Source of the DNA: a virus
Length of the DNA stretch: 64,000 nt
Direction: 5' to 3' (one strand)
IMG/VR virus record: IMGVR_UViG_3300040801_005525
Location: 1-64,000 of that record
Shown: piece by piece, positions 3,071-60,388 of the stretch
How positions within the stretch are numbered: position 1 is the first letter of the stretch
How the letters are laid out: each line of letters begins with the position of its first letter
The notes under the pieces: generated by a model
Told to the model about the DNA's origin: nothing
What the model saw: only the letters and a program-made list of their open reading frames with translations
The model's database searches: none
Translations under genes and position numbers: made by a program

Positions 3071-3394
3071 ATGCGCACACCACAAAGCCCAAGCTGTACG
3101 CCGTGCTCGTCATCCCTCTGCATCGACGACTTGAAGGCGGGTCGCATCACGCTCGAGGAGGGCGCGCTCATCAGCGAGGTGGGGCGCACGCCCTTCGATG
3201 ACCAGGACGTGGTGCAGTGGGGGGTGGGGAGGGTCTCTTCTTTGATCCTCGAAGGGGAGGACTACTCGGAGGATGGGAGCCCGTGCGTGGTGATCGTCGT
3301 GCACGTGACGCAGAGCGATTCCCCTGAGGATACGAGGTATTGGCTCTTCCCTACAGGTACACACGTTCACCTCATTAATAATTCGGGTTTTTGA
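3071..3394 (+). CDS. Hypothetical protein
   Basis: AGGA RBS, fits operon tiling. Confidence 0.65.
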   Translation: MRTPQSPSCTPCSSSLCIDDLKAGRITLEEGALISEVGRTPFDDQDVVQWGVGRVSSLILEGEDYSEDGSPCVVIVVHVTQSDSPEDTRYWLFPTGTHVHLINNSGF

Positions 3395-22791: not shown

Positions 22792-23052
22792 TCAGGAGCG
22801 CCTGTACCAGAGCATGGCGAGAATGAGGACTCCAAGACCCATGTGATGTGTCCAATCCACGACCCCCTTGCAGACCAGGACGATCATCAGGATGATGAAC
22901 ATCGTGATCGAGATCCAGGGAGAATGTGAGATGTAGAAGCACGCTGTGAGTAGAGGATTTCGTTGTGAGACGACCTCCATCTCAAGGCCTTTTCTGTACG
23001 CTTCACGCTCACCTTTGCTCGGGTCAAAGGGCTCCATATGTGGGGTGCTCAT
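22792..23052 (-). CDS. Small membrane protein
   Basis: GGAG RBS, two hydrophobic segments. Confidence 0.5.
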   Translation of the reverse strand: MSTPHMEPFDPSKGEREAYRKGLEMEVVSQRNPLLTACFYISHSPWISITMFIILMIVLVCKGVVDWTHHMGLGVLILAMLWYRRS

Positions 23053-23605
23053 GCTTGAGTCTCCATGGTCTATGGTGCTCTCCCTTGTCTGGGGAGAGTA
23101 CCCCATGGAAACCAAGACAGAGCACGAGAGTCATCACGAACATCATGATGAACTCTTGTGTCTGCAAGCTGGGTTTCCTTCGAAGGCGCGCCCGTCTGGT
23201 TTCTCTACTTCGATGGTTCAACGTGCATTATGTAGCGTTCTTTTTGCGAACTGAATCAGAAGTTAAGAGAGGTGACAGGGCGCCAGGCTCATCATCGAGC
23301 CACCAATGGAAACAAACTCTCTCTTACACTTTCTCCCCAAAGGGAGTGCTGCCGTCAGGCACATCACCAATTTAGGCGCCAGTTTTCTTCGCGTCAAGCT
23401 GTGTGAAGCAATTTGGCACCTGCTGAACAAATTAGCTCATTGAAGAGACAGAATGAGCAGGCAGGCTATGCACTAGTACGTCCCTTCCATGCCCATGATG
23501 TGACCATGTCTTCAGAAGAGCGAAGAGCCATAATTTAACTTGACCGATGTTCAGTGTTTGGGGTGTCATGTGTCTCCATCTCGAACCCAAGCAAAGGAGC
23601 ACGCC

Positions 23606-50736: not shown

Positions 50737-50772
50737 CGCATGTCCTCGCTGTGTAGGGGGAAAGGAGAGGGT

Positions 50773-50813
50773 GTGTCGTGAGAAGCCTTGAAGCTCAGGG
50801 CTTCTCACGACAC
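50773..50813. other. Long intergenic hairpin
   Basis: GTGTCGTGAGAAGCCTTGA-agc-TCAGGGCTTCTCACGACAC, about a 19-bp stem with no U-tract. Confidence 0.75.
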
Positions 50814-50817
50814 GAGA

Positions 50818-51234
50818 TCAGATCAGCCCGTGCTCGGTGAGGAAGGCCTCACGGCGAGCCGCGAGCTCTTCTTGCGTGCCCTTGCCAGAGAGGCCCTCGA
50901 CGGCGGCGACCGCGCTCCGCAAGGCGCCGAAGTCCTCGATGTCCACATCGATGAGCTTCTGGATCTCGGGGGTGACCACGAAGTCCTTGTCAGGCTCTCC
51001 CTTCTTATGCGCGCCTTCCTCGGACTGCGCGGGGGGTGCAGGCGGGGCCGTGGGCTCTGACCTCGAGGAGGTGGGCCTCGCCAGGAACTCGGCGGGGCAG
51101 TCGATGATGCCCTGCGCGTGAAGGTACATGAGCGTGGAGGGGTGGCGCTCTGGACACGCGTCGCCACTCTTGTACGAGACACCCTGCATGGTGTGCTTGG
51201 TGCGAAAGACAGGGCCAGTTTGCTTGGTCGTCAT
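50818..51234 (-). CDS. Hypothetical head-associated protein
   Basis: Follows MCP. C-terminal SGKGTQEEL resembles SAP/HeH-type helical motifs. Confidence 0.6.
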   Translation of the reverse strand: MTTKQTGPVFRTKHTMQGVSYKSGDACPERHPSTLMYLHAQGIIDCPAEFLARPTSSRSEPTAPPAPPAQSEEGAHKKGEPDKDFVVTPEIQKLIDVDIEDFGALRSAVAAVEGLSGKGTQEELAARREAFLTEHGLI

Positions 51235-53820: not shown

Positions 53821-55146
53821 TCAGGGCGCGATCGAGGGGAGCCCGAGCTCGAGGTAGTCGTTGATCTGGTCGTTGGTGTACCCGAGCTTCTTGAGCCGAA
53901 GCGCGCTGTTGAGCTTGGCGTCGAGCACCGCTTGCATCGCGGGGATGCGGGTCTCATCGGGCACGATCACCAGGTCCTCGCCGAACTCGTAGGCGAGGTC
54001 CGAGGTGAGCATCTGGCAGATGCGGCGCAGGTAGGCCATGACCGTCTGGAGCCAGAAGATGTCGAAGGCGCCCTGCACGTTCGAGTAGTTGGCGTTCTCG
54101 AAGTAGGTGGCCACAGGGGGCGGCACGTGGAAGAGCGCGAGCAGGTCATGGCGGTAGTGCACGCGCTGCTCGAGGAACTGCATCTCGCGCGGGGACAGAG
54201 AGAGCCCGTGGATCGTGGCCCCGTTATCGAGGATCAGGACCTTGCCGTCCTGCTCCGCGTCGGTCGTGGCATCGAGCCGCTCACGACGCTCGTTGTAGGC
54301 GAACTCGTTGAGCTCCTCTTCGAACATCACCGCGGCGCTTGGCCTGCCCTGGCGCCCTGCGACCTTCTTCTGGTAGCCGAGCGCCTCGGTGTCCGAGTCG
54401 ACGGCGAGCGCCGCGCTCCGCAGCACGCTCGAACCCCACCACGGGTTGCACGGGTCAGGGAGCATGATGTGCCCGACATCCTCGGGGTTCCAGCGCTCGA
54501 CGACCTGGCTCCTCGCGATGGTCGAGCGGCGCCTGTAGTGGTCGAGGATGGCGCGTGAGCCCTGGCGCGCCTCGATGGGCGTCATGTCATCGGGGCTCAC
54601 CTGATCGAGCTCGATGGGCAGCCCGTCGCTGCTTCGCAGGGCCTTCAAGAAGAGCCCGTTTCCCGCGAGCAGGATGTGCTGGACCATGCGCTCGATGAAG
54701 TCGGACTGGGGCTGGTAGGTGTTGGGCTGGTCGATCACGTGTTGCAGGCGCTGCGCGCTGACCTTGTTCGTGGTGATGACCTTGCCATCACGCTGGCGCC
54801 GGCGCACGACGAGCGGCACCGTGGCGACGTTCTGCGCGATCAGATCGACGCACAGCCTCACCACCGCGGCCTTGTGAAAGCCGTCACGCGTGGCAAGCTT
54901 CAGGCTCATCGCCCCATCCCTGTGGGAGAGCGAGGAGGTGGTCGACGAGGAGACCGGGCGATGGGCCGTCAGGCTCAGGCCGAGCGTCCCCGTGCCGATC
55001 GGGGGGTTCAAGTCCGAGCGCAGCCGGGCGGGGCCAGCTTCCGCATGCACGGAGGGAGAAGATGCCCCGTCTGCGAGCTGGCGCGCCCTGTAGGCCCACA
55101 CCGACTCCCCCTGTCGCCACGCCGCGATACGCTCTGAAAAGCTCAT
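53821..55146 (-). CDS. HK97-family portal protein
   Basis: VRLCVDLIAQNVATVPL, PNTYQ, LLAGN, GKVLILDNG, EMQFLE, FHVPP and ANYSN. Confidence 0.92.
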   Translation of the reverse strand: MSFSERIAAWRQGESVWAYRARQLADGASSPSVHAEAGPARLRSDLNPPIGTGTLGLSLTAHRPVSSSTTSSLSHRDGAMSLKLATRDGFHKAAVVRLCVDLIAQNVATVPLVVRRRQRDGKVITTNKVSAQRLQHVIDQPNTYQPQSDFIERMVQHILLAGNGLFLKALRSSDGLPIELDQVSPDDMTPIEARQGSRAILDHYRRRSTIARSQVVERWNPEDVGHIMLPDPCNPWWGSSVLRSAALAVDSDTEALGYQKKVAGRQGRPSAAVMFEEELNEFAYNERRERLDATTDAEQDGKVLILDNGATIHGLSLSPREMQFLEQRVHYRHDLLALFHVPPPVATYFENANYSNVQGAFDIFWLQTVMAYLRRICQMLTSDLAYEFGEDLVIVPDETRIPAMQAVLDAKLNSALRLKKLGYTNDQINDYLELGLPSIAP

Positions 55147-55189
55147 GGTGCCCTGGGCAAAAGAAGGAGAGGTGAGAGAGGGGCGCGAT

Positions 55190-56806
55190 CTAAGTCCAGC
55201 CGATGTGTGCGGTGCGCCTCGGCGCGATGACGTCATCGGCGAACGCGTAGACGAGCGCATCGGCGTGATCAGGAGACTGCGAGGAGCCACGGCGGCGCTT
55301 CATCTCATCCTTGCGCTCGACCTGGATGAGCCCTGCCGTGCTGCGCTTCTCCTTGAGCCAGGAGAGCTGGTCGATGAGCTTGGGGTCATTCGGGATGCTG
55401 ATGCACTCCTCGAGCGGGTAGCCTGCGCCCCGGGTCACGTTCTCATAGGTCTTTCGGAAGCGCTCGCGCACGTTCCAATAGAGCTCGGCCCTCAGGTTCA
55501 CAAAGAGCTCGTGACTGCGGCGCCCGTCAGGCCACCTTCGCCGCGTGGCCTTCGCCGAGAACTTGATGCCCTGCGCCTTGAAGTGCGCGGGGAGGTCGTG
55601 CAGGGCGAGCTGATGGGGCGGGAGATCCCCGAGCGCCACGCGCAGCGCCTCACCCACGCCGAGCACGTCATAGGAGAGGCAGGAGGCCCCCTCCTCCCCG
55701 CAACGCTGCAAGATCCGCTCGGCGCTCTCCTCAGGCAAGAGTCCATGCCAGCTCTCCCCCTCGAAGACGAGCGGCCCGCAGCGTGGGTAGAGCACGTTCG
55801 AGTCTCCTGTCAGGCCCACGTCGAAGCCTGCCGAGATGTGCGCGCCGCCCGAGACCTTGAACCCCACGGCCGCCTTGACCCAGGCTGGCGGGATGACGCT
55901 CCCCTCGGCGCTCCCGAGGAAGTCCATCATGACCTCCTGGGCAAAGCCTCTGGGGTCATGGGCGCTCTCTTGCCTCATGCGCTCGAGCCAGTGCGCATCC
56001 CTCCAGGGCACACAGTCCCAGGGCATCTCGAAGAGGCGGGTGACGCCCTGCTTGATGCGCTGGGCAAAGGGATTATCGAGCCCGTTGGGGGTCGAGATCT
56101 CGATCAGGACCTCGGTGTTGTTCAGGATCCCGCGCAGGCGCTCCAAAGGGTTGTCGCTCTTGGCGGCCTCGTCCCACACGTAGATCGAGGCGCGGCCCCC
56201 CACGCCCATGTTCTTGCCGATCTCGCCGGTGATCGAGCTGCCGGTGTCCGGGAACACGATCGCGAGCTTCTTGGAGTGGTCATCGCGCTTGAAGCCTGGC
56301 GCGACCACGGCCATGAACCACTTGGGCAAGCGCGCCATGAGGATGCGCGCCTTCTCGAACAGGCTGTCGGGATCCCCCAGGACATCGAGGCTCTTCTCGG
56401 TGCGTGACCCGAAGGTGGCCTTGAAGCCCTTCTGGAAGAGCCCGGCCCACACCGAGTAGGCGATGAGCACCCAGGAGGCGCCCACGCCGCGGCATTTGAG
56501 GATCGAGGCGTTCAATTTGTCGCGGCGCCACAGCCCGATCTCGATGAGGAGCTCGCGCTGGCGCTCATAGAGCTCGAAGGGCACATAGCCCGGGACATCC
56601 TTGCCGGGGTTGCGTGGGTCATAGGTCCAGGCGAAGTGATCGATGAAGAAGGCCACATCCCTGCGACACTTCTCGATGACCTTGGCCTGGAAGTCGGGAT
56701 CCCCCTCGCAGCGCCTCTGGAACTTCAGGCGTTTTTCTGCGGCCTGTCGCCAGAGGTCATGCGCACGCGCATCGCTCGTCTTGAGGCTCGCGAGCTCCTG
56801 CACCAT
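55190..56806 (-). CDS. terL: Terminase large subunit
   Basis: Walker A KCRGVGAS, Walker B WDEAA, ISTPNG, nuclease motifs FDVG, YDVLGVG and SPDHADA. Confidence 0.92.
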   Translation of the reverse strand: MVQELASLKTSDARAHDLWRQAAEKRLKFQRRCEGDPDFQAKVIEKCRRDVAFFIDHFAWTYDPRNPGKDVPGYVPFELYERQRELLIEIGLWRRDKLNASILKCRGVGASWVLIAYSVWAGLFQKGFKATFGSRTEKSLDVLGDPDSLFEKARILMARLPKWFMAVVAPGFKRDDHSKKLAIVFPDTGSSITGEIGKNMGVGGRASIYVWDEAAKSDNPLERLRGILNNTEVLIEISTPNGLDNPFAQRIKQGVTRLFEMPWDCVPWRDAHWLERMRQESAHDPRGFAQEVMMDFLGSAEGSVIPPAWVKAAVGFKVSGGAHISAGFDVGLTGDSNVLYPRCGPLVFEGESWHGLLPEESAERILQRCGEEGASCLSYDVLGVGEALRVALGDLPPHQLALHDLPAHFKAQGIKFSAKATRRRWPDGRRSHELFVNLRAELYWNVRERFRKTYENVTRGAGYPLEECISIPNDPKLIDQLSWLKEKRSTAGLIQVERKDEMKRRRGSSQSPDHADALVYAFADDVIAPRRTAHIGWT

Positions 56807-56813
56807 GGTGGAC

Positions 56814-57320
56814 TCACTTCAACCCGTCAGCGAGCTCACGGTCGAGCTCGTCATCAGTGAGCTCGGCGGCAGCCTTCTGCTGGGCGAGCGTGGCGCTCGC
56901 GATCGCCCCGGAGTGCTCGACCTTGTAGGAGGAGCGAAGGTGCGGGAAGAGCCTCTCACCAAGCCACGCATCGGCCTTCCAGTCCACGAGCGCCTTGGCG
57001 TGGGACTTCTCGAGGATCTTTGCGGTGAGGTGTTGCTCGGCGACGGCTCGCGCGTGCGCGCAGCTGTAATAAAACTCGAGGTAGACGGCTTCACTGGCGG
57101 CCTCGGGCGTCGCACACACGACCTCTTCATCGAGGGTGGGGTCGGCTTCAAAGAGCGCCATGAGGCGCTCGGCCTCCTTCTTGCCTCGCGACATCCAGCG
57201 GTGGTAGGCCTGGCGGGTGATGCGATGGAGCCCACACACGACCTCGATGCTCACGGTCTTCTTGAGCTCCTCGGCGATCGCCGAGGTCAGCTCGGGGGTG
57301 CATTTGGTGGGTCGGGCCAT
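56814..57320 (-). CDS. terS: Terminase small subunit
   Basis: MARPTKCTPEL HTH N-terminus, DWKA.AW..ER.FP and KVEHSG. Directly upstream of terL. Confidence 0.8.
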   Translation of the reverse strand: MARPTKCTPELTSAIAEELKKTVSIEVVCGLHRITRQAYHRWMSRGKKEAERLMALFEADPTLDEEVVCATPEAASEAVYLEFYYSCAHARAVAEQHLTAKILEKSHAKALVDWKADAWLGERLFPHLRSSYKVEHSGAIASATLAQQKAAAELTDDELDRELADGLK

Positions 57321-57352
57321 GGTGGTGTGAGGGGGTGTGGAGGAGAGGGGTT

Positions 57353-57547
57353 TTAGTCGCAGAGGATGTCGCGGGTGTCGAGGTAGTCCCGCACCCTCTC
57401 GCTGTGGGGGGGTGGGGGTCCTTTTTTCTTGATCCAGTGAAGGAGCACATCACGGGAGAGGCCAAGCGAGGCAGCCAGATCATCGAGGTCAAGGAGCCCT
57501 AACCGATGAGCCCTGCGCACTCTGCATACAAGACAGCACGAGCTCAT
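57353..57547 (-). CDS. Small HTH protein
   Basis: AAGGAG RBS before ATG 57547. Contains LDDLAASLGLSRDVLLHWIK. Confidence 0.65.
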   Translation of the reverse strand: MSSCCLVCRVRRAHRLGLLDLDDLAASLGLSRDVLLHWIKKKGPPPPHSERVRDYLDTRDILCD

Positions 57548-57591
57548 GGCGGTCAGCGCTCCTTTTTGGTCTTCGATGATGAAGAGGAGGG

Positions 57592-57753
57592 AGATCGAGC
57601 GTGAGCATCCTATGGGGAGGGGAACCACGTCACGAGGGTCACAGGTGGAGAACCCTGTGCGCAAAAGGCTCTGGCTCGTGTAGAGAGAAGGAAGCCAAAG
57701 CCCTGAAGAAATGTGACGCGAGGCCCTTGCCCGCAAGATGTTCAGCACGATCC
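57592..57753 (-). ncRNA. Highly paired structured RNA candidate in the late-operon leader
   Basis: A long irregular helix (GGATCGTGCTGAACATCTT../..AGGATGCTCACGCTCGATCT; CGCGTCAC/GTGACGTG) closes two hairpins (GGCTTTGGCTT/GAGCCAGAGCC; CACAGG/CCTGTG). Confidence 0.55.
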
Positions 57754-57938
57754 TTTCTAAGGAGAGAGATGGCATGGTGAGTCCGTATCGCCTGGCCTGC
57801 TCATCCCGTGGTGTGTGAGGTCTGCGCCTCTACCCTACTGCAACACACCCACGCGTCACGTGCATAATTAATCCATAAAAATCAAAAACTTACACAAATA
57901 AACAAGACTTCTTTGTGCCGTCTAGATTCCTGACGGCA

Positions 57939-58244
57939 TCAGGGAGGCGGGGGGCTCTGCGGCGTGAGCTCGAGCGAGAGCTCCAGGATGCTGATCAGGG
58001 CGCGAGTGCGATCGAGCTCGTCCACGAGCCGGGCCTCTTCGGCCTTCAACACCTCGAGATCACGCTGCGTCTGGCGGGGGCCATAACCGAGCACACGCTC
58101 GGTGCGCTTCCAGTCGAGCACCTTGCTCACCAGGTCACGCACACTCTTTGGGGGGTTGCGGTGCAGATAGCCCGCCCAGAGTCGCGCGGGTTGAGTGCGC
58201 AGCTTCAGGACGACGCGCGCGTAAAGGTAGCGGTCTTTCTTCAT
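57939..58244 (-). CDS. Hypothetical basic protein
   Basis: ATGA overlap with upstream gene. Confidence 0.6.
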   Translation of the reverse strand: MKKDRYLYARVVLKLRTQPARLWAGYLHRNPPKSVRDLVSKVLDWKRTERVLGYGPRQTQRDLEVLKAEEARLVDELDRTRALISILELSLELTPQSPPPP

Positions 58245-58825
58245 CTCACATCCTCTCTTCGTTGCCGGGCAAGGCGTCTTCGCTCCTCGGCGAGCGCGTC
58301 ATCGAGCAGCGCCATCACTTCATCGCTCCATCCAAGGATCTCCTCATCGGGGAGGTGCGCGAGCTCGGGGTGCCGTGTGCGGTGGTTCTTGAGCACGCGC
58401 CCCCTCGTGCAGAAGGTCTGCTTGGGAAAGGGAGGGGCGAGCTTGGCGTGGTCGCTCAACCCGAGCCGACGGCGCTCCTTGCGCCACTCATCGAGCGTGC
58501 CCTGCTGGTGGTTCTCACGCAGCTCCCTGGGAAGCCTTGGCCGATCGCGCAGCCCGTGCACCCAGTCATCGGCGAAGACCTGCCCCTTGTGGGGAGGGAT
58601 GGTCCTGGCGAAGCGCGCGAAGAAGTGGGAGAAGTCAGCCAGGTCAGGCGCCCACCACGGCTCGGGGTCAGGCGGCGTGGAGGTGTCGATCTTCTGGCGC
58701 GCGGTGTCGAACGCGTTGATGGCGCACTGCTCCTGCAAGAGCAGGTACACCAGGACGAAGTGCAGGCCGTTGTGGATGTCTGCGAGCGCGCAGATCTTGA
58801 CGTCATCGTGCATGGGGCATGTCAC
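58241..58825 (-). CDS. Hypothetical protein
   Basis: Typical codon usage. Confidence 0.65.
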   Translation of the reverse strand: MTCPMHDDVKICALADIHNGLHFVLVYLLLQEQCAINAFDTARQKIDTSTPPDPEPWWAPDLADFSHFFARFARTIPPHKGQVFADDWVHGLRDRPRLPRELRENHQQGTLDEWRKERRRLGLSDHAKLAPPFPKQTFCTRGRVLKNHRTRHPELAHLPDEEILGWSDEVMALLDDALAEERRRLARQRREDVR

Positions 58826-58843
58826 ATGAGGGAGGAGTGAGAG

Positions 58844-59065
58844 TCAGGGCAAGGGCGCGCATCCAGCGCGGGCAAGAAGATGGGCACAGTGATCGACGGC
58901 CTCGGCGAGGCTGCACAGCCCGAGGGTCGCAGCGCGGGACGATTCAGCGAGCTGCTCGAGCACAAAGAGGGTGCGCGCCCAGCGCACATCAGGGCGCCTG
59001 TCGATCCATCGCGCAAGCCCTTCGCGCAAGAGTGGCTCTCTCCAGTGATGTCTCGTGTCAATCAT
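58844..59065 (-). CDS. Hypothetical protein
   Basis: GGAG RBS, overlaps upstream stop. Confidence 0.5.
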   Translation of the reverse strand: MIDTRHHWREPLLREGLARWIDRRPDVRWARTLFVLEQLAESSRAATLGLCSLAEAVDHCAHLLARAGCAPLP

Positions 59066-59858
59066 CGAACTCTCCCTGTGCCACGAGCAAGAGCAAGTCT
59101 CTGTGCTGTTGATGTGCTTCATCGACGGTCAAACACTGAACTTGTTCCACAAGGCATCCTCCATGCTTTGTGCCCAGGCCACCTCGCCATACAGATGAGC
59201 TGTACACGTACACATCACGAGTTCGAGAGGTGAAGGGGGTGTAGTCACGTGCGTCTCGGACGCATCGAAGCGTGGACACTGTCAGATCACCCACGCGAAA
59301 CCTCCAACCAGGATATTTGACTCGCGAGAGATCCGCAGGATCGTGCATCCGCAGCATCGGGGGCTGGCGCTGAGCTCGAGCTTTCACCCATTCAATAAGT
59401 CGCACGCTCTTTTCTCTGCCATGGTCTGGACTGCGAAGCCTCCTACAGAGCGCACATGACCTTTCACACTCACGGCCCGGCACATGCTTGAGATGAAGCA
59501 CAGCATCAAGGCGCTGAGGTTTCACGAAGACCCTGATATACACGGATGCGCCGCGCTCTTCATCGAACGTCCTAACATCTTCGACGAGTTCCACGGTCAC
59601 GCCGAGATACGCATCGAGGTAAGGCTCGATGTGTGCGATCAACCAGCGAATGGCATCATCACGCTCATCAGACCACGCGATCTCAAGATAGCCCCCGTGC
59701 ACGTCTCGCTCTTCATCCCACGTCACCTCACAGGTCAAGACATCCAGGCCCTGCCCACCACACGCATGCATGAGCGCCTGCCTGACCTGCATCGCATCTA
59801 CAGACGTGACAACATAGGGCACGTTATCGATGACCTTCACGATACGCTTCACACCCAC
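59058..59858 (-). CDS. Hypothetical protein
   Basis: Operon tiling, GGAGG RBS. Confidence 0.65.
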   Translation of the reverse strand: MGVKRIVKVIDNVPYVVTSVDAMQVRQALMHACGGQGLDVLTCEVTWDEERDVHGGYLEIAWSDERDDAIRWLIAHIEPYLDAYLGVTVELVEDVRTFDEERGASVYIRVFVKPQRLDAVLHLKHVPGRECERSCALCRRLRSPDHGREKSVRLIEWVKARAQRQPPMLRMHDPADLSRVKYPGWRFRVGDLTVSTLRCVRDARDYTPFTSRTRDVYVYSSSVWRGGLGTKHGGCLVEQVQCLTVDEAHQQHRDLLLLVAQGEFDD

Positions 59859-60388
59859 CCTCCCCGCTCACAAGCCTCGCCGCTGACACGCCTTCGCATC
59901 CACGCGATCGCGCGCCCATCACACTCCACCTTTCGAAGGGTGGTGCAGCGATGCCTCGCGAGGAATCCCTTGATGCCCTCGACCCATTCGCCTGGCGTCT
60001 CGTCATAGAAGATCGAGCCCCCACCCACGTACTCGATGCACTCGTGGGAGAGGCCTATCCCCTCCTCTTCGCCGTTGATGACCACGCAGGACGAACCAGA
60101 CACAGACTCATCCTCGGGCCACCACGTCACGTCGAACGGGATGCCACGACGCACCGCGTCGATGAGGAGCTCGCACACGATGGCGAGCTCGCGCTCTGCT
60201 GCGCTCTGTGGCCAGGGCGTGCAGGTACGCCAAGGGGTGGGGAAGGTCGCACATCTGCCATCCCACGCATGCCCACATACCTGGAGTCGTGCACACCGCA
60301 TGACCACGGCGTCACGAGGGCAGGGTTGAGGCACAGGTTCACTCAGCACACCACAGTCCCCTTGAATGCGACACACTACCCCCATCAC
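59849..60388 (-). CDS. Cys-rich hypothetical protein
   Basis: AAGGAGG RBS, GTGA overlap. Confidence 0.6.
   Translation of the reverse strand: MMGVVCRIQGDCGVLSEPVPQPCPRDAVVMRCARLQVCGHAWDGRCATFPTPWRTCTPWPQSAAERELAIVCELLIDAVRRGIPFDVTWWPEDESVSGSSCVVINGEEEGIGLSHECIEYVGGGSIFYDETPGEWVEGIKGFLARHRCTTLRKVECDGRAIAWMRRRVSGEACERGGWV

Follow-up and report, generated by a model that had tools for sequence, protein, structure and literature searches.

A rod-shaped structured RNA ahead of the packaging genes of an uncultured microbial-mat phage, a candidate leader of its late operon

The gap ahead of the packaging genes of an uncultured phage from a microbial-mat metagenome contains a 162-nt element that folds, as minus-strand RNA, into a long irregular rod leading to a three-way junction. 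The fold is stronger than that of any of 200 shuffled sequences, a contig from an RNA library spans the whole element, a tandem promoter-like motif found in this region only accompanies it, and the open reading frame (ORF) that overlaps it is not conserved as a protein. These observations are tentatively read, at a confidence somewhat short of even, as the rod-bearing 5' leader of the late/packaging operon, which would be transcribed on the minus strand from an upstream promoter (P1) and act both as a stable RNA and as a cis-acting gate, with a second promoter (P2) embedded in it. Within this reading, we infer the strand, the RNA ends, the use of the promoters and the gating mechanism. The window is the analysed stretch of 64,000 nucleotides, counted from position 1, of a linear IMG/VR virus record that is 82.8 kb long and ~82% complete; the GC content of the phage genome is ~63%.

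The virion-gene block of the phage occupies 27 kb of the minus strand, from ~57.5 kb down to ~30 kb. The element sits in a 391-nt gap (57938-57548) ahead of a small helix-turn-helix (HTH) gene, and the first-pass annotation was right that this gene and terS lie downstream of it; terL (phrog_2) comes next, followed by an ORF that the same annotation named as a putative portal. Pfam and PHROG searches assigned no known family to the minus-strand genes upstream of the gap. The 101-aa and 194-aa proteins encoded there have no Pfam family and no PHROG of known function, their sole matches (E ~0.05-0.09) being to DUF2924 and to a PHROG of unknown function. The gene for the 194-aa protein (58241-58825, minus strand) lies two genes upstream, and its product has a single homologue (68%), encoded on a contig of 899 nt from ENA. 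The proteins nearest to it in structure are weakly sigma-70-like (TM 0.33-0.38, low-confidence Atlas model), and the AF2 model of the 194-aa protein has a pLDDT of 46; on these models the protein is a possible candidate for a late activator or sigma factor. The features of the region are as follows.

57915-57936, minus strand: weak terminator-like hairpin with a GCCGUC/GACGGC core (from sequence; fold -13.5 kcal/mol)
57862-57915, minus strand: AT-rich tract (windows at or below 30% GC), putative UP-like element or activator site of P1
57832-57859, minus strand: P1, GTGACG-16 nt-TAGGGT, promoter-like bipartite motif with a predicted start at ~57826-57824
57587-57822, presumably minus strand: metatranscriptome contig from run X4, 236 nt, word depth 13, 0 differences
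57754-57822, minus strand: 5' part of the RNA, 69 nt, with the CU-rich run CAUCUCUCUCCUUAG (z -0.5, within chance)
57592-57753, minus strand: 162-nt rod plus three-way junction, the core structured element (MFE -73.4, z -6.2)
57665-57704, minus strand: hairpin 1, 13 bp (3 G.U) with the 14-nt loop CCUUCUCUCUACAC (z -4.4 alone)
57640-57659, minus strand: hairpin 2, 6 bp with the 8-nt loop GUUCUCCA (z -2.8 alone)
57607-57633, minus strand: P2, GTGACG-15 nt-TAGGAT, second copy of the motif and putative promoter
57559-57564, minus strand: AAGGAG, a good Shine-Dalgarno (SD) sequence of the HTH gene, ahead of an internal AUG at 57547
57353-57547, minus strand: 64-aa HTH gene, first gene past the element, with weak MerR_1/HTH_17 likeness
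56814-57320, minus strand: terS, small terminase subunit (phrog_4102, E 6.5e-19)

The weak hairpin at 57915-57936 lies directly past the stop of the upstream 101-aa ORF; it was missed by the terminator scan and gives a weak ES205-like Rfam alignment at E 8, which is chance level. Further downstream, terS has no SD sequence, and the 32 nt (57321-57352) that separate its ATG from the stop codon of the HTH gene are rich in C (CCCCUCUCCUCCACACCCCCUCACACCACC), which suggests HTH-coupled translation or leader-independent initiation. Another C-rich word, CCCCCACCCCCC, occurs 8 times with at most 1 mismatch, against 0.32 expected: at 3219, 4269, 6469, 11328, 18888, 30680 and 62501, and at 57407-57418 (minus strand), inside the 64-aa HTH gene. 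The match of terL to a metagenome-assembled genome (MAG) of the Bradymonadaceae, at 41%, offers a weak lead toward a host in the Bradymonadales.

The fold of the element has been evaluated against shuffled sequence. Its minimum free energy (MFE) is -73.4 kcal/mol, compared with -48.4 +/- 4.0 for 200 dinucleotide shuffles, 0/200 of which folded as well; the resulting z of -6.2 is inflated, as the boundaries of the element were picked to maximise the fold. The claim that the 162 nt fold on the minus strand is thus supported, and the centroid is identical to the MFE structure, which is also kept when flanks are added (236-, 326- and 331-nt contexts). An irregular helix of about 40 bp leading to a three-way junction had been proposed; the helix and the junction are there, with 34 pairs in bulged arms of ~41 nt. 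At the junction, an 8-nt single strand is followed by hairpin 1, a short U-rich linker and hairpin 2. The two hairpins had been described as 11 bp and 6 bp, of which the second length is right and the first is corrected to 13 bp. Both loops are pyrimidine-rich, as had been stated, and the pyrimidine content of the RNA is 58.5%. A branched hairpin that the first-pass annotation placed at 57807-57853 did not survive the comparison with shuffles (z -0.9, inside the shuffled range).

The argument that G-U pairs favour the minus strand also holds, with 8 G.U pairs in the minus-strand structure vs 2 A.C 1x1 mismatches, although the plus strand of the element still folds to -71.4 kcal/mol (z -5.0). 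On that strand hairpin 1 breaks up, and the loop sequences read UGGAGAAC and GUGUAGAGAGAAGG. The long arms of the rod were not detected as an inverted repeat by a DNA-level repeat finder, and this result, together with the count of G.U pairs and A.C mismatches, indicates that the helix forms better in RNA of the minus strand than in DNA or in RNA of the plus strand. In a genome-wide scan of local folds, the element ranks ~16th among windows of at least 110 nt, and most of the windows ranked above it include perfect palindromes, iterons or terminators. The strongest local folds are located at 74433-74614, 79932-80175 and 76132-76370 of the genome and at 23040-23312 and 50743-50893 of the window. 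They include long perfect palindromes and tandem CGAAACTGAGTTTCG-type repeats near a parB-like gene, and a perfect 20-bp hairpin at ~50.8 kb is also among the strongest folds of the genome; the likely roles of these loci are those of operators, of a centromere or iterons, and of a terminator.

Evidence for an RNA comes from the habitat of the phage. The phage is present in four public runs from one sample of one study, and one of the four runs (X4) is a metatranscriptome. The 236-nt contig assembled from X4 takes in the entire rod and extends beyond it by 69 nt in the 5' direction and by 5 nt in the 3' direction. Contigs from the DNA runs, which are 3-9 times larger than X4, have depths of 2.5-10.3 over 55000-60000, compared with the depth of 13 for the X4 contig, a comparison to be read in the light of the fact that contigs carry no strand, RNA-end or level information and that an RNA library may contain DNA. 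Contigs from two of the DNA runs (X1, 57621-58242; X3, 57696-57888) continue across 57822, where the X4 contig ends. Over the rest of 55000-60000, X4 contributes just a depth-2 piece at 57036-57199, and such holes prove nothing about silent late genes. The contig at 57587-57822 is read as a stable RNA that would be transcribed from the minus strand, with ends near those of the contig. The depth-2 piece, which lies over terS, carries 5 differences; each of the 4 that are listed is a G>A change as read on the plus strand, or C>U in the sense of terS. Residues are altered by two of the changes (T62I, A70V), in a part of TerS that is also variable in the 71% homologue. These differences may reflect a variant strain or a strand-specific C-to-U change, between which so low a depth does not discriminate.

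A promoter-like motif would place the start of this putative RNA. P1 consists of GTGACG (57859-57854), a spacer of 16 nt and TAGGGT (57837-57832), and its predicted start falls 2-4 nt from the end of the RNA contig at 57822. P1 was searched for after the contig end was known; the count of matches in the genome came afterwards, as an independent result. The pattern GTGACG-N14-18-TAGGRT has 2 matches in the 82.8-kb genome, both on the minus strand and both in this region, against 0.02 expected. The second match, P2, lies within the DNA encoding the 3' arm of the rod, with a predicted start at ~57600, 53 nt before the HTH AUG. Both copies are in direct orientation, and their hexamers are conserved whereas their spacers (15 and 16 nt) differ, a pattern that, at the level of sequence, would be expected of promoters. 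The hexamers match the sigma-70 consensus poorly, and a consensus sigma-70 scan called neither P1 nor P2 as a promoter, which points to a possible need for an activator or a phage factor. P1 lies directly below the AT-rich tract, which the first-pass annotation had placed at about 57862-57915 and which is real: 40-nt windows with a GC content of 30% or less occur at just nine places of the 82.8-kb genome, and 57853-57919 is one of them. Four other AT-rich tracts, near 1.9, 26.7, 28.1 and 80.6 kb, have a TTGACA hexamer, and three of them have a -10-like hexamer 17 nt downstream of it. An 11-nt stretch of the 5' arm of the rod, CCUCGCGUCAC (57713-57723, minus strand), is complementary at 10/11 positions to the -35 part of P1, GUGACGCGUGG (57849-57859), which would be transcribed solely in read-through from the upstream operon; an alternative pairing of the two is possible on sequence grounds.

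The 3' end of the RNA would have to arise in another way than at an intrinsic terminator. A terminator scan of the minus strand (57200-58400) found no terminator-like site, and the rod is followed by CCCUCCUCUUCAUC with no U run; canonical intrinsic terminators are present elsewhere in the phage, at ~24.0 and ~30.0 kb. The 60 nt past the last stretch of the rod are C-rich and G-poor (C/G 1.75). Given that there is no intrinsic terminator, the 3' end would derive from Rho-type premature termination or from mRNA decay trimmed to the helix. The distance from the end of the contig to the AUG of the first late gene is just 40 nt, which is too short for a separate promoter and SD and counts in favor of a leader position. 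The SD of the HTH gene is predicted to be paired equally in transcripts from P1, from P2 and from read-through. A clamp in which CUCCUU (57764-57759) pairs with the SD across the rod was considered and dropped, as the SD is equally paired without the rod; this independence, as modelled, counts against the cis-acting part of the leader reading.

The element is neither a protein-coding gene nor a member of a known RNA family, as judged by the searches performed. The first-pass annotation had pointed to a 140-aa ORF (57353-57775) as the competing protein explanation, and this ORF is not conserved. Its one real homologue among 1.84 billion representatives (P0124, 64 aa, 70% identity) aligns to residues 80-140 alone. 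The GC content by codon position of the 76 N-terminal codons is 0.51/0.51/0.66, compared with 0.63-0.72/0.43-0.47/0.81-0.88 for five long neighbour genes and 0.65/0.45/0.69 for the 64-aa HTH gene. The 140-aa ORF was rejected as a real gene, with its sole homologue 64 aa long and its N-terminal part lacking the GC signature of coding sequence. At gathering thresholds, Rfam 15 gave 0 matches over the whole window, and at E<=10 the matches over 57300-58100 were chance-level miRNAs, lncRNAs, snoRNAs and an sRNA (ES205), none of them near threshold. With the RNA-library contig spanning the element, no Rfam match and the failure of the 140-aa ORF, the suggestion of an undescribed noncoding RNA or leader has gained ground; by sequence comparison, the element appears to be an orphan structured RNA of no known family.

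Relatives of the region are few. The closest is a single 10,322-nt Logan contig, with 70% identity to the HTH protein (P0124), 71% to TerS (P0002) and 62% to TerL (P0005); apart from this contig, relatives of TerL reach at most 47% (up to 49% over short pieces). Among viral contigs, searches by terS returned no relatives and those by terL a best long match of 34%, with short pieces up to 49%. Isolate phages reached at most 33%, genome contigs yielded 80 loci (at most 38% among full-length matches), and metagenome contigs searched by terS yielded 6 loci (25-41%). The hairpin-1 pattern had no match in viral contigs, and exact or degenerate patterns of the RNA had none in metagenome contigs. A degenerate hairpin-2 pattern was found at 14 loci in viral contigs, and 0/14 matched a covariance model of the element. 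This single-sequence model found no homologue of the RNA at 61 related loci, in 48 genomes from the order of a Bradymonadales MAG, or in the rest of the phage; one 19-bit match was rejected as lying inside a 480-aa ORF. Across 23 distant relatives, no consistent pattern of structure emerged in the gap ahead of terL, and one candidate (L002) was set aside: its z was just -3.3, and by eye its sequence resembles a tRNA. The fold is accordingly known here from a single sequence, which counts against the leader reading.

The same phage has a second rod. A 211-nt stretch of the genome at 74030-74240 (minus strand) has a rod-like fold (-86.5 kcal/mol, z -5.9) in a ~420-nt leader that follows a TTGACA-17-TCGAAT promoter. 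The rod itself, at 74038-74234, stops 15 nt short of the ATG of the gene that comes next. The two rods share no sequence, as local alignment is within the shuffled range and the covariance model gives no match. The presence of a second rod in another long leader suggests that this phage may habitually carry long rods in its leaders.

Collectively, these results are consistent with the following model. On the minus strand, the gap at 57938-57548 would control the packaging/virion operon, and P1, consisting of the AT-rich tract and GTGACG-16-TAGGGT, would start transcription near 57825. The first ~236 nt would begin with 69 loosely folded nt, continue into the 162-nt rod and persist as a stable RNA, whose 3' end, produced by Rho-type termination or by decay trimmed to the helix, would lie a few bases past the base of the rod. 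The location of P2 inside the DNA encoding the rod means that the late genes could be read either through the rod (from P1 or by upstream read-through) or without it (from P2). The rod leader would then gate late expression in cis, whether through attenuation, through interference with P2 or by serving as a processing or stabilising hairpin. The order of the parts along the DNA is that expected of a cis leader on the putative minus strand: P1 at 57859-57832, the contig at 57822-57587, the SD at 57564-57559 and the AUG at 57547. The nearly equal folding of the plus strand (z -5.0) counts against this minus-strand reading.

Several other explanations have been weighed against the cis leader. An unlikely one is that P1 produces a free-standing, trans-acting small RNA, which would bind a protein or the purine-rich ribosome-binding sites of host or phage mRNAs through the CU-rich, anti-SD-like single-stranded motifs CUCUCUCCUUAG, CCUUCUCUCUACAC and GUUCUCCA, or would keep the late genes shut as an "RNA immunity factor" of the P1 C4 / P4 CI type. 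The RNA-library contig of just 236 nt at depth 13 and the CU-rich runs in the two hairpin loops and the 5' part of this 58.5% pyrimidine RNA are what such a molecule would show, but the RNA has no intrinsic terminator, though the phage uses canonical ones elsewhere, and at 40 nt from the first late gene it must belong to the 5' UTR of that gene. Duplex predictions against 157 start regions were not above the random-window background, which weakens the earlier idea of an anti-SD sRNA, and no complementary site was found downstream in the operon beyond generic CU-rich/SD-like pairing. The RNA is probably not a free-standing trans-acting one. It is distinctly unlikely that the rod serves simply as an RNase III-type processing or stabilising site that sets the stability and translation of the late mRNA, with the RNA that was seen being the protected product. 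A 34-pair bulged helix in a 5' leader beside a start codon, and a second long rod 15 nt before an ATG in another leader, fit this explanation; the RNA contig runs unbroken through both arms, which speaks against it, although contigs cannot show cuts.

The region might also matter chiefly as DNA, the motif copies and AT-rich tract forming a pac- or cos-type packaging element that is bound and bent by TerS or the HTH protein, with the RNA an incidental stable by-product. In many phages cosB or pac sites lie directly upstream of terS, and both the direct repeat of the motif and the AT-rich tract are in keeping with such a site, but this explanation is very unlikely: the helix needs 8 G.U pairs and bulges and is not seen as an inverted repeat by the DNA repeat finder, conserved hexamers with differing spacers (15/16 nt) are promoter-like, the RNA contig starts 2-4 nt from the start predicted for P1, and the assembled contig does not end here. 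A plus-strand RNA, either antisense to the late leader or a GGA-bearing sponge of the CsrA/Rsm type, draws on the plus-strand fold (-71.4 kcal/mol, z -5.0) and on contigs that carry no strand information. It is highly improbable, as hairpin 1 breaks up on that strand, the ratio of G.U to A.C is 8:2 in favor of the minus strand, neither copy of the unique motif is on the plus strand, and there is no promoter-like site left of 57587 and no terminator right of 57822. The opposite strand had been called GGA-rich, but its 6 GGA are set against a genome mean of 3.6 (sd 2.2), with at least 6 in 18% of genome windows and 4 on the minus strand of the element, and the link to CsrA is weakened with it. 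Little credence is given to a bolder reading, in which the ~236-nt RNA would be a free-standing regulatory RNA of a new family, abundant while the virion genes are off, that acts as a "lock" or decoy (an immunity RNA of the P1 C4 / P4 CI type, an anti-SD or a polymerase mimic), its gene overlapping the true late promoter P2 so that RNA synthesis and late firing exclude each other.

The candidate leader can be compared with known systems. In lambda-type late control, pR' gives rise to a 194-nt '6S' transcript that ends at tR' and is read through with Q. Similar to that system, a promoter just past regulatory genes would produce a short, abundant leader at the head of a very long late operon, whose genes would be reached solely by transcription through it. 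In contrast, the element here has no intrinsic terminator, no Q-family protein is recognised upstream by Pfam or PHROG, and the element forms one long rod plus three-way junction with a second promoter-like motif inside. Gram-positive temperate phages have activator-dependent late promoters (RinA/ArpU/Ltr type) and structured leaders before terS. The succession of small regulator genes, a non-consensus promoter, a long structured untranslated leader and terS is shared with the present phage, whereas the host lineage is another one, the GC content is high and there is no terminator; searches of the phage proteins against Pfam and PHROG gave no match to the Ltr/ArpU/RinA family. Leader hairpins processed by RNase III, such as those of the lambda N leader and the T7 R sites, resemble the element in being long irregular double-stranded helices in a 5' leader or intercistronic region beside a ribosome-binding site. 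The element is larger, however, it has a three-way junction at its end where those hairpins have a simple loop, and its cleavage is putative.

Comparisons with discrete RNAs are also instructive. The element resembles the pRNA of phi29 in its similar size near packaging genes, and in having a helix of the 5' and 3' ends, a three-way junction, a U-rich linker and two hairpins. In contrast to pRNA, both of its loops are rich in pyrimidines, with no 4-nt Watson-Crick complementarity between them by eye, the phage has a classical terS/terL pair, and the pRNA family is unmatched in Rfam at E<=10; the proposal of a packaging-associated RNA is weakened by these differences. Bacterial 6S RNA associates with the RNA polymerase holoenzyme and serves as the template for product RNAs, whereas nothing ties the element to the polymerase. 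Like the element, 6S RNA is a ~160-240-nt rod whose two ends pair with each other, with a break in its middle and a small 3'-side hairpin, but the element has a true three-way junction in place of a central bubble flanked by coaxial stems. Covariance models of 6S RNA gave no match at E<=10 (Rfam, 57300-58100), and the case for a 6S-like mimic is correspondingly poorer. Sponges of the CsrB/RsmY type carry many GGA in loops, unlike the element (6 on the plus and 4 on the minus strand vs a mean of 3.6, sd 2.2). The loops of the P1 C4 and P4 CI immunity RNAs are complementary to targets downstream in their own operon; duplexes predicted for the element stay within the random-window background, and the pairing seen is of the generic CU-rich/SD-like kind. 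Finally, the cabRNAs of staphylococcal phages vary in sequence between phages, and the cabRNA of phi80alpha, ~400 nt, maps inside the terS and terL coding sequence (PMC10686824). Like them, the element would be a structured, discrete RNA from a phage terminase region, but it lies in non-coding DNA upstream of terS. What is distinctive here is that there is no terminator, that a promoter-like motif lies inside the helix, and that the RNA evidence comes from the phage's own habitat.

To our knowledge, how late (packaging and virion) genes are switched on outside the model phage groups is mostly unknown, and the region described here provides a testable case of such switching in an uncultured, high-GC mat phage. 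It links three features: an orphan structured RNA that is represented in environmental RNA, a tandem promoter-like motif unique to the region, and a copy of that motif within the DNA that encodes the helix. If the fold is not conserved in related phages, the element would be one more structured 5' UTR. If the fold is conserved, it would represent a new leader-RNA family and would suggest that synthesis of the leader and firing of the late promoter compete.
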